Source: a virus (lineage: Duplodnaviria > Heunggongvirae > Uroviricota > Caudoviricetes). Taken from it: a stretch of DNA of 55,858 nucleotides. The DNA is taken from the IMG/VR virus record IMGVR_UViG_2660237930_000002. One strand, given 5' to 3'. Positions 19,734 to 51,782 of this stretch are shown in pieces. The position numbers and the translations under genes were made by a program. The notes beneath the pieces are model-generated. The model was not told where the DNA came from. It ran no database searches and saw only the letters and a program-made list of their open reading frames with translations. Numbering within the stretch: the stretch's first letter is position 1; every line of letters starts with the position of its first letter.

Positions 19734-19946
19734 TTGAAGATAGTAACCAGAATGGAGGCCGCAAAAGCCGGGTTAAATCGCTATTTCACAGGAAAGCGGT
19801 GCCGTCACGGCCATCTCTCTGAAAGGTATGTTCTGAACGGAACATGTGTTGAATGTGCAATGAATAGCGCCAACCGCCATCGTAATGAATTTGCTTGTGC
19901 ACTAAAGAGTGCAAGAGGGGAAACCTATGGCAAGCAGCTGGATTAA
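19734..19946 (+). CDS. Small Cys-rich hypothetical protein (TTG start)
   Basis: AAGGGG RBS then TTG; C-x-H-G-H...C-x2-C pattern. Confidence 0.35.
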   Translation: MKIVTRMEAAKAGLNRYFTGKRCRHGHLSERYVLNGTCVECAMNSANRHRNEFACALKSARGETYGKQLD

Positions 19947-20757
19947 GGTTGAAGTTATCACTCCTGATAAACCTGAAATTTTTCAGATAGCAGAAATTCT
20001 GGGTATTGATCCAGATGCTGTTCTTGGAAAGCTGGTTCGTATATGGGCATGGGCTGACCAGCAAACAATAGACGGTAACGCTGGCAGCGTTACAAAAGGA
20101 GTACTTGATAGACTCGCTTTTATTACAGGATTTGCTGACGCCCTCATTAGCGTCGGATGGCTTGCTTATCATGACGGCAAACTAATTCTTCCAAACTTTG
20201 AGCGACACAATGGAGAATCATCGAAAAAACGTGCACTTACGAATAGAAGAGTGGCAGAGCATCGAAAACGAGTAACGCAAAAAGTAACGCCAACAGCGTT
20301 ACAAAAGGAGTTACCAGAGGAAGAGGAAGAGGAAGATATATATAAAACCCCACACATAGCGCACGTGCGCGAGGGTGCTCCGACCAGTGAAGCGAACGGT
20401 ATGCCGTTGCAGGTGGCTGAACCTGAATTTCTGGATGGCCTGAGTGAACCCATCGGGAAATTTCCGATGACCGATGGCTGGCATCCGTCGCCGGATTTTC
20501 GACGGCGTGCTGCGCTGTGGGGAACGGCCCTGCCGGAACCGGAATTTACACCTGCTGAACTTGCTGCATTCCGGGATTACTGGATGGCTGAGGGCAAAGT
20601 GTTCACGCAGGTTCAGTGGGAACAAAAATTCGCCAGGCACGTAAATCATATCAGGGGAAAATCAAAAAACGCCGGGAAAAGCGATGAGCTTGACTGGAAT
20701 AACACTGACTGGATAGAAGGGGTGTGGGATGAAATCAACTCCAGAACTTCTCAATGA
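19927..20757 (+). CDS. Replication initiation protein (lambda O-like replisome organiser with DnaT-like C-terminus)
   Basis: N-terminus MASSWIKVEVITPDKPEIFQIAEILGID...; acidic linker; position directly upstream of the P-like gene. Confidence 0.6.
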   Translation: MASSWIKVEVITPDKPEIFQIAEILGIDPDAVLGKLVRIWAWADQQTIDGNAGSVTKGVLDRLAFITGFADALISVGWLAYHDGKLILPNFERHNGESSKKRALTNRRVAEHRKRVTQKVTPTALQKELPEEEEEEDIYKTPHIAHVREGAPTSEANGMPLQVAEPEFLDGLSEPIGKFPMTDGWHPSPDFRRRAALWGTALPEPEFTPAELAAFRDYWMAEGKVFTQVQWEQKFARHVNHIRGKSKNAGKSDELDWNNTDWIEGVWDEINSRTSQ

Positions 20758-21505
20758 GTACGATCGCTTACGTGAGCATGGTGTTGCTGTGCATGAAGAG
20801 CGGCGTGACAGCAATGGCAAAAAGGAGCAGGTCGCTAGAATTTTCAATGAACTATTTGTCCAGTTACAGGCTGCATTTCCTGCAAGCGTTTCGACCATAA
20901 GGGAGCAGAACAAACTTAATGAATTCCGTAAGCAATGGATGCTTGCGTTTCTGGAGAATGGGATCACTACAATGGAACAGGTTAACGCTGGTATGCGCTA
21001 CGCCCGCGCCAGTGAATCTCCGTTCTGGCCGTCGCCAGGGCAATTTATCAAGTGGTGTAAAGACAGCAAGATGGTTCTTGGCGTCACCATTGACGATGTG
21101 ATGGCGGAGTTTCACCGGTACAGCAAGGAAAAAAGTTTATATCCTGGTGGTCCCGAAAGATTCCCGTGGCGGCATCCGGTTATGTACTGGGTCGTATGTG
21201 ATACCCGCCGTGCAATGTATCAGCGCCAGCTTAGCGAGATTGAGGTTGAGAAACACGCGCGCAGGCTGCTCGATGATTGGGCGAAAAAGGTGGCTTCCGG
21301 GCAGCAGATACCAGATCCGGTGATCAGCATACAGGCAAAGCCAGAACCCATGAGTACGCCTCCGGACACAGGGAGAGACGTTTACCACCCGCCAGGGCGA
21401 AGTTTCGGGTGCATGCCTAACGCCGCCACCACGGGGGGAATAACACCGGCGCAGTGGCTGATGGAGGAATACAGGCGGGGAAAGGCGGCAGGATTTATCA
21501 AGTAA
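20729..21505 (+). CDS. Replication protein P-like (helicase loader)
   Basis: Segments ...QLQAAFPAS... and NGITTMEQVNAGMR align with lambda P as recalled. Confidence 0.75.
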   Translation: MKSTPELLNEYDRLREHGVAVHEERRDSNGKKEQVARIFNELFVQLQAAFPASVSTIREQNKLNEFRKQWMLAFLENGITTMEQVNAGMRYARASESPFWPSPGQFIKWCKDSKMVLGVTIDDVMAEFHRYSKEKSLYPGGPERFPWRHPVMYWVVCDTRRAMYQRQLSEIEVEKHARRLLDDWAKKVASGQQIPDPVISIQAKPEPMSTPPDTGRDVYHPPGRSFGCMPNAATTGGITPAQWLMEEYRRGKAAGFIK

Positions 21506-21542
21506 TACCAGCGCGATAGCGCATTTTTTTACGTCTCAACAA

Positions 21543-21557
21543 TTACCTATCAGGTAA
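21543..21557. promoter_or_regulatory. Operator TTACC-tatca-GGTAA downstream of the replication genes
   Basis: Perfect palindrome; imperfect copy at 21605-21619. Confidence 0.55.
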
Positions 21558-21622
21558 TAAAATATTCTAAACTCTATTGATTTCGTGTCTTATGTGGTTT
21601 TTAATTACCTTAGAGGTGAATC

Positions 21623-49907: not shown

Positions 49908-49984
49908 AGGGATGAATAAAAATATCTGATGTTACATTGATAATTAATTGGGAAAGATATAATGAATATTAAGTGGTGTTTTGT

Positions 49985-50389
49985 ATGTCTGTAGGTATAA
50001 CCAGCGAGTCTTTAAACCAATGGCTTAGCATGAGTTCTCTGGTGGCGGTGATAGTTGGAGTTCCTCCTGAGGTTGCTTTGGGGGCTTTGGCTGGGGCGGT
50101 AATTTTTGTTACCTCTGCGGTAGAGTATCCCATTCGTCGTCGTGTACTTTTGTCGATACTTAGCTTTCTCTGCGGACTTCTCTTTTACAAACCAGCAGCA
50201 TCAATTCTTATCGGCATAGCCAGCCTGATCCCTACCATCACGCAGGACTCTTTTGAAAAAGGGATTGTTTTCTCTGCTGGTGCATTCGTGTCAGCAATTG
50301 TTGCTGTGCGTATTGGTATATGGCTCTACCACCGTTCCGATAATCCACGCGAGTTAATTCCGGGGAGAAAAGACGATGGTAGCGCATGA
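49985..50389 (+). CDS. Holin-like membrane protein (start uncertain; ORF begins at 49973)
   Basis: Several TM segments; position immediately upstream of the endolysin. Confidence 0.5.
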   Translation: MSVGITSESLNQWLSMSSLVAVIVGVPPEVALGALAGAVIFVTSAVEYPIRRRVLLSILSFLCGLLFYKPAASILIGIASLIPTITQDSFEKGIVFSAGAFVSAIVAVRIGIWLYHRSDNPRELIPGRKDDGSA

Positions 50390-50684
50390 GTTTTTTTTGC
50401 TTATAACCAATGCATTTATTTGTACTGGCATAGCAATTCGCGTTGTCACATTCCGACGTAACGGATCTCAACATCGAAGATGGGGTGGTTGGCTTGCTTA
50501 TTTCCTGATTGTTGCAGCGGCCAGTATTCCGGTTCGTGTCGCCTATGCAATCTGGTTCCGCACGCCAATGGCTGTGGATTTATCTGAGGTCATTATTAAT
50601 GCTGTCATGCTTGCTGCGGTTATTAAAACGCGCGGTAACGTCGTTCAAATTTTCAAAGTATCGAGGTCTAAACATGGAGATTAA
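50376..50684 (+). CDS. Holin/antiholin-like membrane protein
   Basis: 102 aa, 2-3 TM segments, charged C-terminus. Confidence 0.5.
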
Positions 50685-51303
50685 GCAATTCCAGCGAGCT
50701 GCTGGTATCAGCGATGCGCTGGCCGCACGCTGGTTCTCGCATATAACTTCTGCGATGAATGAGTTTGGTATCAGAAAACCCGAAGATCAGGCAATGTTTA
50801 TTGCTCAGGTCGGGCATGAGTCTGGGGGCTTCACCAGGTTGCAGGAGAATTTCAACTACAGCGTCACAGGGCTGGCTAACTTTGTTCGGGCAGGACGTCT
50901 CACTCAGGGACAGGCCAACGCATTGGGGAGACGCGCAGGCGAACCACCATTGCCACTTGAGCGCCAGCGAGCGATTGCCAATCTGGTGTACAGCAAACGC
51001 ATGGGGAACAATGCCCCCGGAGATGGCTGGAATTACCGAGGTCGCGGACTTATCCAGATTACCGGTTTGAATAACTATCGTGACTGCGGAAACGGTCTGA
51101 AAGTTGACCTGCTGGAGAATCCTGAACTGCTGGCGCAGGACGAATACGCGGCTCGTAGCGCGGCGTGGTTCTTCTCCAGCAAAGGTTGCATGAAGTATAC
51201 CGACGATATTGCACGTGTAACTCTGATTATCAATGGTGGCCGGAACGGCATTAATGACCGGCGCGCGCGATACATCACTGCCAGTAAGGTGCTGACGGTA
51301 TGA
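50674..51303 (+). CDS. Endolysin, glycoside hydrolase family 19-type
   Basis: 209 aa; [22 protein letters not shown] and [12 protein letters not shown] motifs recalled from GH19-type phage endolysins. Confidence 0.8.
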
Positions 51304-51782
51304 TCCTGACATTCGTAAAAGCATATTGGAAACAGTTGATTATCGTGTTGATGCTTGCTGTTCTGGTCATATCAGGAGTTGTTGCCTGGAATATACACGG
51401 CAGTCGTCAGTACGACGCTGGGTATGCGCAGGCGAAGGAAGACCGCAAAGCTGAAGATGAGAGAGTTCGTCAGCACTACGAACAGGAGAAAGCGACCAAT
51501 GAACGTGAAGCTCAGCAGAGGATCGACCAGGCGCGCAATGATGCTCTTGATGCTGCCGCTCGCGCTGGCCGGTTGCAGCAACAACTCTTTGCCATCCGTG
51601 AGCAGCTCAGGCAGTATAACGCCATTGTCGGCGCTGGGACGTCAGCCGCAGACACCGGAGTTTTGCTTGCCGACGTGCTCAGCAAATCTCTCGAGAGAAA
51701 CAGACAACTGGCAGAGTATGCTGACCGGGCAGCCGAAGCCGGAAGAGTCTGCGAAAAACAGTACGACACCCTGACCAGATAG
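51300..51782 (+). CDS. Rz-like i-spanin
   Basis: N-terminal TM anchor then coiled-coil-like charged region; follows endolysin. Confidence 0.7.
51499..51774 (+). CDS. Rz1-like o-spanin embedded in the +1 frame of the i-spanin gene
   Basis: [26 protein letters not shown] lipobox, Pro-rich mature region; entirely inside the Rz-like gene. Confidence 0.65.
   Translation: MNVKLSRGSTRRAMMLLMLPLALAGCSNNSLPSVSSSGSITPLSALGRQPQTPEFCLPTCSANLSRETDNWQSMLTGQPKPEESAKNSTTP

Follow-up and report, generated by a model that had tools for sequence, protein, structure and literature searches.

The window (the whole stretch of DNA analyzed, 55,858 nucleotides) contains, at positions 13274-51903, a 38.6-kb Uetakevirus prophage (epsilon15/phiV10/ZX5 type) at the 3′ end of guaA, which is also the reported integration site of phage ZX5 (PMC9782041). 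Exact copies of the att core, ATTGAGTGGGA, are present at 13274 and 51893 (0.02 expected), and the last codon and stop of guaA come from the phage side of attL. The prophage is apparently intact. Gene annotation was taken from the matching record of the E. coli GN02350 prophage, which is 100% identical to window positions 13000-37900, and from the list of open reading frames (ORFs) of the window. A prophage in E. coli CU532-9 also matched at 100% identity. With a 25-kb early-to-virion query, ZX5, HEMP4, PAS61 and O157 typing phages 9 and 10 showed 97-98% nucleotide identity over 81-86% of it, phiV10 showed 97-98% identity over 73%, and epsilon15 and Tyrion were 76-81% identical. Of 5,426 complete E. 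coli genomes, 231 carry 80% or more of a test stretch of 24.9 kb.

An earlier note on positions 19927-51782, the right three-quarters of the prophage, had described lambdoid early genes, T7/epsilon15-like virion genes, lysis genes last, and no Q-like gene. That description holds, with a virion module of podovirus type, but it covers only part of the element. What the note called a “mosaic architecture” is the standard Uetakevirus plan, described for epsilon15, phiV10 and ZX5 and already known as an E. coli prophage type.

Gene content of the prophage

The attachment sites and early region comprise the following features.

13274-13284, plus strand: attL core, exact repeat at the guaA 3′ end
51893-51903, plus strand: attR core, exact repeat of the attL core
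13481-14731, plus strand: tyrosine integrase (annotation)
14735-18307, minus strand: leftward early operon (annotation, domain searches)
18482-18558, no strand assigned: PL region, operators 18482 and 18544, 62 bp apart
18616-19200, minus strand: prophage repressor, SPC32H Rep homologue (5d50_A, 3.5e-42)
19256-19329, no strand assigned: PR region, operator 19256 and promoter-like TTGTTA-17-TATTAT (19301-19329)
19355-19585, plus strand: Cro-like 76-aa protein (phrog_35)
19607-19626, plus strand: terminator after cro (sequence scan)
19927-20757, plus strand: O-like initiator (DnaT domain, 6.5e-19)
20729-21505, plus strand: lambda P-like helicase loader (PF06992, 4.5e-55)

The leftward operon encodes DUF1382, MT-A70 methyltransferase, PerC-like, AlpA/Xis-like, RecT/Bet and PD-(D/E)XK exonuclease proteins, plus a 99-aa protein that is not N-like. 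The PL operators flank a leftward promoter-like site, TTGACA-17-AATCAT (18524 to 18496), and an imperfect operator (19304-19318) lies within the spacer of the PR promoter-like site. Pfam and PHROGs class the repressor family as HTH Cro/C1-type, and a domain search of the prophage repressor found no S24 protease domain.

The O/P-type replication genes named in the earlier note were borne out. Their running straight into terminase was not, as about ten accessory ORFs occupy the ~4.2 kb between P and terS (21506-25765), but no Q lies there. These ORFs include DUF1064 (resolvase-like), Ea22-like, DUF551, DUF4752 and ASCH proteins, the conserved 112-aa regulator candidate and a 70-aa ORF, and no Q domain was found among the accessory genes. 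More broadly, no gene matched a Q or N family in Pfam (all annotated genes and, from 19355 to 29223, every plus-strand ORF of 60 aa or longer) or, for the genes scanned there, in PHROGs. The true start of terS is likely the ATG at 25766 rather than the annotated TTG at 25688.

21623-25129, plus strand: accessory, nin-like genes (domain searches)
25123-25461, plus strand: conserved 112-aa regulator candidate, epsilon15 gp49/N15 gp46 family (phrog_536, “transcriptional regulator”)
25766-27834, plus strand: terS and terL (terL 26359-27834; domain searches)
27925-28299, minus strand: N4 Gp49/Sf6 gp66-family gene (domain search), in a minus-strand insert (27925-28574)
28498-28574, minus strand: tRNA-Arg(TCT), same insert (RNA annotation)
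29002-34103, plus strand: head genes (gp3-like, portal, Bbp19-like, scaffold-like, capsid, cement, 111-aa, staple)
29223-30902, plus strand: portal, 559 aa (PF12236, 2e-187)
31908-32894, plus strand: major capsid protein, 328 aa (epsilon15 GP7 family, 2e-148)
33780-34103, plus strand: epsilon15 gp10 staple (domain search)
34103-37179, plus strand: tail adaptor (201 aa; 8ck1_E, 1.6e-26) and nozzle (823 aa; 8ck1_A, 1.4e-217)
37179-44987, plus strand: internal virion/ejection proteins of 154, 179, 837, 600 and 824 aa (profile searches)
45207-45587, plus strand: lipoprotein gene, last of the structural block (lipobox LVGC)
45682-47315, minus strand: block containing DUF2335, a 108-aa protein, operator 46505 and the long antirepressor
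46605-47315, minus strand: long antirepressor, Bro-N domain and SPC32H-Ant-like C-terminus
47364-47447, minus strand: C4 antisense RNA (Rfam, 66 bits; gathering score 45)
47472-47548, minus strand: isrK-like RNA (Rfam)
47585, minus strand: operator upstream of the long antirepressor (region 47364-47599; motif scan)
47631-47888, minus strand: short antirepressor, SPC32H Ant homologue (5d50_E, 4.1e-47)
47910-47925, minus strand: perfect LexA box, CTGTATATTTATACAG, 22 bp upstream of the short antirepressor
48084-49907, plus strand: tailspike, 607 aa, conserved N-terminal particle-binding part
49985-51782, plus strand: lysis cassette
50674-51303, plus strand: GH19 endolysin (domain search)
51300-51782, plus strand: Rz (annotation)
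51499-51774, plus strand: Rz1 embedded in Rz (lipobox LAGC)

Profile searches matched the structural proteins to the PF12236 portal, GP7 capsid, gp10 staple, Bbp16 and T7_gp14 (the 179-aa protein) families and to the 8ck1 adaptor and nozzle; no tape-measure or tail-tube gene and no siphovirus structural family was found. The order and sizes agree with those noted previously (portal 559, scaffold-like 231, capsid 328, then 201/823/154/179/837/600/824 aa). The 231-aa scaffold-like protein carries the label “protease” in databases, a Bbp16-like cement gene and then the 111-aa gene lie between the capsid and staple genes, and residues 249-398 of the 837-aa protein form a lysozyme/transglycosylase-like domain. 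The receptor part of the tailspike is pectate-lyase-like and low in GC (38%), and the lysis genes (two holins, GH19 endolysin, and Rz with embedded Rz1) follow the tailspike, as had been noted.

Operators and terminators between the gene blocks

The operator sequence TTACC-N5-GGTAA occurs at nine exact sites in the window, against 0.03 expected, and these sites are located at PL and PR, upstream of the antirepressor genes, and in front of terS, of the portal block and of the block with the tailspike and lysis genes. Epsilon15, Tyrion and SPN1S contain it 9-11 times each at equivalent kinds of position, and the epsilon15 RefSeq record labels the equivalent sites repressor binding sites. From this annotation and from homology, we infer that Rep binds the operators of the prophage. 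Operator pairs are spaced 62 bp apart, an arrangement that would fit the Rep tetramer reportedly described in the SPC32H structure paper.

21536-21619, plus strand: promoter/operator module, promoter-like TCAACA-16-TAAAAT with operator 21543 in its spacer
28897-28980, plus strand: promoter/operator module before the portal block, operator 28897, box CATATGTGGTT at 28953
47965-48035, plus strand: promoter/operator module before the tailspike, operator 47965, box CATATGTGGTT at 48009
25697-25748, plus strand: intrinsic terminator (hairpin 25697-25714 and T run), then operator (25734-25748), before terS
27885-27904, both strands: bidirectional terminator after terL (sequence scan)
45596-45613, plus strand: intrinsic terminator ending the structural block

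In the first module, the box is CTTATGTGGTT at 21589, and a second, imperfect operator follows the first at a distance of 62 bp, at 21605. In the pre-portal module, the repeat GGTAATAATTTG at 28969 lies exactly 62 bp past its first copy, and in the pre-tailspike module GGTAATAGAAT at 48025 contains a -10-like TAGAAT. Four phages keep the operator-box module ahead of the units for resolvase, portal and tailspike, and epsilon15 also has it ahead of the lysis unit. A consensus scan found no canonical sigma-70 promoter at the portal, tailspike or terS modules; the -10 and -35 elements assigned by hand are weak, and an activator may therefore be needed. The operator before terS is ~18 nt from the start codon and so is not part of an ordinary promoter. 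The terminator at 25697 (folding z = -3.8) and the operator that follows it are laid out in the same way in epsilon15, Tyrion and SPN1S, and the spacer between the regulator gene and terS contains an operator in 62 of 63 distinct IMG/VR versions.

Control of the late genes

These conserved sequence features suggest that the late genes are controlled by repressor sites before each block. The earlier note had held that late activation is not evident from the sequence, which overstates the case: the operators at unit heads, the Rep/Ant pair, the LexA box, the unit-separating terminators and the conserved regulator gene just before terS can all be read from it. The explanation that we favor, and consider probable, is that this prophage, which has neither Q nor N, derepresses each late unit directly via Rep operators. 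Intrinsic terminators or minus-strand inserts would divide the rightward genes into units (cro; 70-aa ORF-O-P; accessory genes to the 112-aa gene; terS-terL; portal to ejection proteins; tailspike and lysis), each headed by an SPC32H-type repressor operator, often a 62-bp pair with a CATATGTGGTT box between, and the operator-box modules would be the promoters of their units. In the lysogen, Rep would directly keep all units off. DNA damage would lead to LexA cleavage and release of the short antirepressor, with a second antirepressor behind the C4 and isrK RNAs, and Ant would remove Rep from the operators, such that early and late units are derepressed together. Processive antitermination would be unneeded for most late genes. 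Because only a terminator and an operator, and no visible promoter, precede terS-terL, this unit is probably reached by partial or regulated read-through from the unit upstream. Against direct derepression stand the lack of a canonical sigma-70 promoter in the scan of the portal, tailspike and terS modules and the position of the operator before terS; simultaneous release offers no obvious early/late timing, and the model accounts for neither the CATATGTGGTT box, nor the conserved 112-aa protein, nor a 12-bp palindrome, GTGACATGTCAC, present in three exact copies.

25458-25469, no strand assigned: palindrome copy a, overlapping the stop codon of the 112-aa gene
27909-27920, no strand assigned: palindrome copy b, between terminator 27885-27904 and the 3′ end of the minus-strand Gp49-family gene
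45584-45595, plus strand: palindrome copy c (site 45584-45613), overlapping the lipoprotein stop codon and abutting terminator 45596-45613

The palindrome and the 112-aa protein, which combines a basic N-terminus and helices with a zinc-finger tail rich in Cys, raise the alternative, in our view unlikely, that this protein is a late regulator with a Q-like role, though unrelated to Q, that recognizes GTGAC-N2-GTCAC near terminators; RNA polymerase would then pass those terminators, or the late units would be activated. In the window, epsilon15, Tyrion and SPN1S, its gene is always the last before terS, although the neighboring accessory genes vary. An exact 12-mer is expected ~0.003 times per window, yet epsilon15 and SPN1S carry GTGACATGTCAC at three places syntenic with those of the window, and two copies were found in Tyrion, whose third copy runs across the ends of the linear record. 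Read along the direction of transcription, each copy precedes an intrinsic terminator by 0-25 nt; the exception is copy a of the window, which an inserted 70-aa ORF separates from its terminator. Even homologues of only 30-45% identity keep GTGAC-NN-GTCAC, with another central dinucleotide, at or near the 3′ end of the gene, but the palindrome is missing beside some homologues of 70-77% identity, and two of the three palindromes in the window are at 3′ ends of units, away from promoters. The PHROGs label of the family agrees with a regulatory role, as do weak matches of a family profile to the RNA-polymerase-binding proteins TraR (E = 0.025) and YbiI (E = 0.033) over the motif CxxCGxx(I/L)PE..G..C; the TraR match, however, is marginal, the second CxxC of the TraR family is absent, AlphaFold gave a poor model (pLDDT 66), and Foldseek, Pfam and NCBIfam returned no match. 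The family also occurs in the Q-bearing phages N15 (gene 40) and L090, the latter with a Phage_antitermQ/DUF1133 gene 1.3 kb downstream of the homologue, and in Mu-like contexts, indicating that it is no dedicated Q replacement.

Very unlikely, we believe, is a model in which most late expression comes from transcription that starts at PR or at the 21.5-kb promoter and reads through the whole 30-kb plus strand, with antitermination provided by an RNA element (HK022 put-like) or host factors and the late operators serving only as roadblocks in the lysogen. Every late gene is on the strand of PR, the late modules yielded no strong promoter, terS is preceded by a terminator and operator and no promoter, and the hairpin after terL would leak, given its poor T-run on the plus strand. 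An Rfam scan of the window, however, returned only tRNA, C4 and isrK and no antitermination RNA, and the sequence of the terminator at 45596 suggests a strong one (a stem of 7 bp, mostly G+C, and a T-rich tail), although its folding z-score is only -2.0. Read-through would also cross two minus-strand gene blocks antisense, and the operator-box module recurs after every minus-strand interruption, including before the epsilon15 lysis genes, as expected of restart promoters. That the prophage is a defective remnant that lost Q and its late-control region is extremely improbable: a few ORFs of the accessory region (22.4-24.6 kb) are marked as pseudogenes in the GN02350 annotation, but the packaging, virion and lysis ORFs are all full length, two att cores are present, and the comparison with viable phages contradicts this reading, since the Q-less gene order is also that of the isolated plaque-forming phages ZX5, phiV10, epsilon15, SPN1S and Tyrion (PMC9782041).

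Comparison with known phage systems

ZX5, PAS61, HEMP4, phiV10 and O157 typing phages 9 and 10 share the gene order of the window and differ from it in the accessory genes between P and terS, in the receptor-binding part of the tailspike, and in the minus-strand block between the structural genes and tailspike, where phiV10 has an O-acetyltransferase; positions 44900-51950 are covered only 50-67% in this group, at 90-95% identity. Epsilon15, the type species of the genus, and SPN1S/SPC32H share with the window the order of the modules (terS, terL, portal, gp7 capsid, gp10 staple, adaptor, nozzle, ejection proteins), a gp49-type gene just before terS, equally placed operators and three GTGACATGTCAC palindromes, and the Rep/Ant pair is homologous to the solved SPC32H complex 5d50. 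Nucleotide identity is ~76% and confined to the virion genes. In epsilon15, O-antigen conversion genes separate the tailspike gene from the lysis genes, which have an operator module of their own in front; in the window, tailspike and lysis genes are contiguous because conversion genes are absent.

T7 has portal, scaffold, capsid, adaptor, nozzle and internal/ejection proteins in the same order and of approximately the same sizes; the portals of both are in PF12236, the 179-aa protein belongs to T7_gp14, and, according to the epsilon15 record, gp11 matches T7 tail tubular protein A in HHpred. The correspondence with T7 gp8-gp16 proposed in the earlier note stands for order and approximate size but is not one-to-one: Bbp19-like, Bbp16-like cement and gp10 staple genes are extra, three large proteins (837, 600 and 824 aa) stand where T7 has gp15 and gp16, and it is the 837-aa protein that carries the lysozyme/transglycosylase-like domain, not the last, largest protein. 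Also unlike T7, the prophage is temperate, has no phage RNA polymerase, and has a tailspike instead of a fibre.

Like lambda Q/PR′/tR′, the window has a regulator-like gene and an intrinsic terminator just before the first late gene, and the early replication genes are of the O/P type. Unlike lambda, it has no Q or N protein and no visible constitutive promoter upstream of the terminator, and its lysis genes are at the far end, whereas those of lambda come first in the late operon. P1/P7 immunity involves the C1 repressor with dispersed operators and an immI region with C4 RNA and ant. The window differs in its repressor (SPC32H Rep) and in its podovirus virion, and no homologue of the P1 late activator Lpa was among the Pfam/PHROG matches of the prophage genes. 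As in P1/P7, repressor operators are scattered at the heads of many units, and an antirepressor gene has a C4 antisense RNA upstream of it.

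Identity of the element and its chromosomal setting

The segment 19927-51782 had been described as a mosaic of lambdoid early genes, T7/epsilon15-like virion genes and a lysis cassette. The mosaic is real but not new: the element is a textbook member of the described genus Uetakevirus, and such mosaics are already on record and frequent in E. coli. With the 25-kb stretch 19927-44900 as query, phages ZX5, HEMP4 and PAS61 and O157 typing phages 9 and 10 showed 97-98% identity across 81-86% of its length, and phiV10 showed 97.9% identity over 73%. Enterobacter phage Tyrion and Salmonella phage epsilon15 matched in the virion genes only, at 81% and 76% nucleotide identity, respectively. 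Nucleotide identity is accompanied by collinearity with recognised members of the genus; database records assign epsilon15, SPN1S and Tyrion to Uetakevirus, in which ZX5, phiV10, the typing phages and Tyrion have also been placed (PMC9782041).

An 11-bp core, ATTGAGTGGGA, is present at 13274, in the last codons of guaA, and again at 51893 (0.02 expected), and these copies delimit a 38.6-kb prophage. The guaA stop codon is restored by the phage side of the junction, and the published integration site of ZX5 is the same 3' end of guaA (PMC9782041). Taken together, the identity and the att cores indicate that 19927-51782 makes up the right-hand three-quarters of a complete prophage belonging to a known genus. 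Strains GN02350 and CU532-9, both with complete E. coli genomes, carry prophages 100% identical to window positions 13000-37900, and at least 80% of this 24.9-kb test stretch is found in 231 of 5,426 complete E. coli genomes (~4%). For a described genus of this frequency, the mosaic architecture as such is of little importance.

The flanking host sequence has features of its own. Positions 1-8278 contain very large repetitive ORFs, annotated in GN02350 as an adhesion domain-containing protein and unrelated to the prophage. Relative to the same strain, 8327-11271 (xseA and guaB) contains about nine short insertions of 2-41 bp that break the reading frames; at least four exactly repeat, in tandem, the 14-24 bp beside them, and the insertions have the look of errors in assembly or sequencing, not of true biological change. 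Just beyond attR and before yfgI/yfgH, 52202-54991 (minus strand) carries genes for a response regulator and an AAA ATPase together with an integrase-core (IS) gene fragment, and looks like a separate small island beside the prophage.

Replication, virion and lysis genes

The ORF map and profile searches bore out the gene list of the earlier note, including the position of the holins, GH19 endolysin and spanins (Rz/Rz1) 3' of the tailspike.

Replication, virion and lysis genes and their matches
19927-21505: O-like initiator (DnaT domain) and lambda P homologue; PF06992, 4.5e-55, and phrog_2509, replication initiator, 1.5e-129
559 aa: portal; T7 gp8 Pfam family PF12236, 2.3e-187
328 aa: major capsid protein; epsilon15 GP7 family, PF20911, 1.8e-148
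gp10 staple: PF21628, Gp10-like, 1.2e-51
201 aa: connector chain of PDB 8ck1, 1.6e-26
823 aa: nozzle chain of PDB 8ck1, 1.4e-217
179 aa: T7_gp14 family, PF24072, 8.2e-08, score 32.8 bits (cut-off 27)
After the virion block: tailspike, two holins, GH19 endolysin, Rz with embedded lipoprotein Rz1

The element thus combines the lambda P-type helicase loader and O-type initiator of lambdoid phages with the epsilon15-type capsid genes (gp7 capsid and gp10 staple) and the short-tail module (adaptor, nozzle and tailspike) of Uetakevirus. The 154-, 837-, 600- and 824-aa proteins match PHROGs of internal or virion proteins. Re-analysis found no tape-measure or tail-tube gene, either of which would have contradicted the short-tailed reading; the sole "tape measure" PHROG match covers residues 185-421 of the 837-aa protein, spanning its lysozyme/transglycosylase-like domain (249-398). 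The T7-like gene order held in part: the portal and gp14 families are shared, but Bbp19-like, Bbp16-like cement and gp10 staple genes that are absent from T7 are also present, and the lysozyme/transglycosylase-like domain has a different location from that in T7. For the 837-, 600- and 824-aa proteins, considered as possible counterparts of T7 gp15 and gp16, PDB sequence searches yielded no match beyond that domain in the 837-aa protein. A 231-aa protein carries the database label "protease" or "peptidase", yet no protease domain was found in it and its N-terminus is acidic and proline-rich, so "scaffold" is the more sensible name.

The O/P genes do not run straight into terminase, as had been stated, since 21506-25765 carries about ten ORFs. 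With the annotated TTG start at 25688, terS overlaps an intrinsic terminator and a repressor operator (25688-25765); comparison with epsilon15, Tyrion and SPN1S suggests that the true start is likely the ATG at 25766.

Several loci differ from those of related phages. Between terL and the portal gene, 27925-28574 (minus strand) carries, opposite to its neighbours, tRNA-Arg(TCT) and a gene of the N4 Gp49/Sf6 gp66 family, whereas Tyrion and SPN1S have other genes in this slot. Two small genes are added onto the structural block at 44971-45587, the first a 62-aa ORF whose C-terminus includes a hydrophobic stretch and which may encode a membrane protein, and the second a 126-aa lipoprotein with lipobox LVGC; superinfection-exclusion or conversion functions are possible for the pair. 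In phiV10 and epsilon15, this neighbourhood contains O-antigen modification genes instead. The receptor-binding part of the tailspike (48601-49907) has a GC content of 38%, compared with 49% for the prophage, and gave no high-coverage match to phiV10 or ZX5; it was probably acquired horizontally and probably sets a different O-antigen specificity.

Repressor, antirepressors and dispersed operators

The immunity genes resemble the repressor-antirepressor pair of phage SPC32H.

Immunity genes and regulatory sites
18616-19200, minus strand: repressor (Rep), homologue of SPC32H Rep (5d50_A, 3.5e-42)
46605-47315: long antirepressor, Bro-N domain with an Ant-like C-terminus
47631-47888: short antirepressor (Ant), 85 aa, homologue of SPC32H Ant (5d50_E, 4.1e-47)
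47910-47925: perfect LexA box, 22 bp upstream of the short antirepressor

Judged by homology, this is a predicted SPC32H-type Rep/Ant immunity system with a LexA box at ant, as in other Uetakevirus members. The Rfam model for C4 antisense RNA (RF01695) matches 47364-47447 (minus strand) at 66 bits against a gathering score of 45, and an isrK match of 63.5 bits, also above its gathering score, lies in tandem with it within 47364-47548 (minus strand), upstream of the Bro-N antirepressor. The P1-type immI arrangement, in which a C4 RNA lies upstream of an antirepressor gene, is therefore present, and the LexA-boxed short Ant and the long antirepressor preceded by C4/isrK suggest two antirepressor routes.

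The operator TTACC-N5-GGTAA occurs in nine exact copies, against 0.03 expected. Two flank PL; one is at PR, with an imperfect second copy within the PR spacer; one (21543) lies within the spacer of a promoter-like site; another lies 18 nt before terS; single copies stand ahead of the portal block and the tailspike; and two precede minus-strand genes, one of which is the long antirepressor. Epsilon15, Tyrion and SPN1S have 9-11 copies in equivalent places, the RefSeq record of epsilon15 annotates the equivalent operators as repressor binding sites, and the operator in the regulator-to-terS spacer is kept in 62 of 63 distinct IMG/VR versions. Many operators form pairs with a spacing of 62 bp, and pairing would fit a tetrameric Rep; the Rep of SPC32H is reportedly a tetramer.

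When 13 upstream regions from four phages were aligned, a recurrent module emerged, consisting of an operator, 30-45 nt, the box CATATGTGGTT, and a GGTAAT half-site that carries a -10-like sequence. This module returns after each minus-strand interruption, including ahead of the epsilon15 lysis genes. In the window, the box reads C(A/T)TATGTGGTT at 21589-21599, 28953-28963 and 48009-48019, before three rightward units and 44-56 nt downstream of operators, and it is kept in epsilon15, Tyrion and SPN1S. On inspection, CATATGTGGTT did not match the consensus of a -10, a -35 or an IHF site. A consensus scan found no good sigma-70 promoters in the late modules, and this weakness leaves room for an activator.

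Absence of Q and a proposed scheme of late-gene control

The earlier note reported no Q-like gene, and we agree. Pfam was scanned with all annotated genes and, from cro to portal, with all plus-strand ORFs of 60 aa or more; PHROGs was scanned with accessory ORFs, genes lacking a Pfam match and the principal genes for replication, virion and tail. Neither scan yielded Phage_antitermQ, any other Q family or an N family, and the idea of a Q or N concealed in small ORFs was rejected. The same method does detect the Q-family protein (PF06530, 3.4e-08) of a phage record, L090, that has both Q and the 112-aa family discussed below. As for an N-type antiterminator, the first PL gene (18008-18307) lacks an arginine-rich motif and matches only an unnamed PHROG. 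No gene contains a single-subunit phage RNA polymerase domain, and every ORF longer than 600 aa is accounted for as nozzle, virion protein or tailspike. Because epsilon15, Tyrion and SPN1S share the layout, the absence of Q is family-wide and does not reflect decay. In the leftward operon, genes at 14926-15820 (minus strand) specify a DNA methyltransferase of the MT-A70 family and a transcriptional activator resembling PerC; the PerC-like protein is another candidate regulator.

Plus-strand intrinsic terminators
19607: after cro
25697: before terS
45596: at the end of the structural block

Going beyond homology and motif statistics, we infer that Rep controls every unit directly. The genome would then be a chain of short units, each under its own operator; SOS-induced Ant would remove Rep and derepress all of them, and no processive antiterminator would be needed. 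The exception would be terS-terL, which in all four phages is fronted by a conserved terminator and operator with no visible promoter, and whose expression may depend on read-through, either leaky or regulated.

A perfect 12-bp palindrome, GTGACATGTCAC, occurs three times in the window, and one copy overlaps the stop codon of a gene for a 112-aa protein.

The 112-aa gene and the palindrome copies
25123-25461, plus strand: 112-aa gene, phrog_536; epsilon15 gp49; 34% identity to N15 gp46
25458-25469: copy a, overlapping the stop codon of the 112-aa gene
27909-27920: copy b, after terL
45584-45595: copy c, overlapping the stop codon of the final gene in the structural block

The palindrome occupies the same three syntenic places in epsilon15 and SPN1S, and in Tyrion the gp49-adjacent copy is split, as the linear record starts and ends inside it. 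With respect to transcription, each copy lies just upstream of an intrinsic terminator, except copy a of the window, where a 70-aa ORF intervenes. The copy in the regulator-to-terS spacer is retained in all but one of the 63 IMG/VR versions, and GTGAC-NN-GTCAC is found near the 3' end of the gene even in homologues with only 30-45% identity in unrelated phage backgrounds.

In all genus members examined, a gene of the 112-aa family comes last before terS. The family coexists with a genuine Q in N15 and in lambdoid contigs such as L090, and elsewhere adjoins GemA/Mor or holin genes; coexistence weakens the case for a dedicated Q substitute, and we consider it unlikely that the protein is a functional Q analogue. 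A family profile built from 58 diverse members gave weak matches to TraR (E = 0.025) and YbiI (E = 0.033) over a CxxCGxxIPE-type zinc finger. Only the first half of the DksA/TraR motif, CxxCGxxIPxxR...P....CxxC, aligned, with single cysteines in place of the second CxxC, and the Pfam families listed for the 112-aa protein do not include DksA/TraR. NCBIfam returned nothing, Foldseek against the PDB returned nothing with E below 3, and the AlphaFold2 monomer model was poor (pLDDT 66). A bolder and rather improbable proposal is that this family of small proteins, whose zinc finger would be a distant relative of that in TraR, and the linked GTGAC-N2-GTCAC form a widespread, previously unrecognised phage device at terminators of early-operon ends, which in the Q-less Uetakeviruses would open the terminators guarding terS and the late-block ends.

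Two simpler roles for the palindrome fared worse. In epsilon15, SPN1S and Tyrion, copy a reads GTGACA-17-TAAATT just upstream of the terminator, as would the -35 and -10 of a PR'-like promoter; this arrangement is not conserved in the window, with its inserted 70-aa ORF, and a -10 is missing from copies b and c, so we reject it as a general explanation. An RNA hairpin was also rejected, as the stem is only 4 bp and its stability is not significant.

The literature searched contained no account of late-gene switch-on in Uetakevirus and nothing relevant on its late promoters. The residual value of the element lies in regulation: its sequence suggests a testable Q-free scheme and contains two further conserved elements, the CATATGTGGTT box and the GTGACATGTCAC palindrome, the latter linked to the conserved 112-aa zinc-finger protein. 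Reporter and typing systems for O157 and Salmonella make use of Uetakevirus-type phages, so knowledge of the late promoters of these phages would be of some practical use.

As a member of Uetakevirus, the element has no RNA polymerase of its own and does not count among the T7-like phages; having neither Q nor N, it also falls outside the lambdoid phages as defined by their regulation. Phage P1 has dispersed operators and C4/ant immunity, and in these two respects the prophage is in part P1-like, while in its Rep/Ant pair and LexA box it is SPC32H-like.
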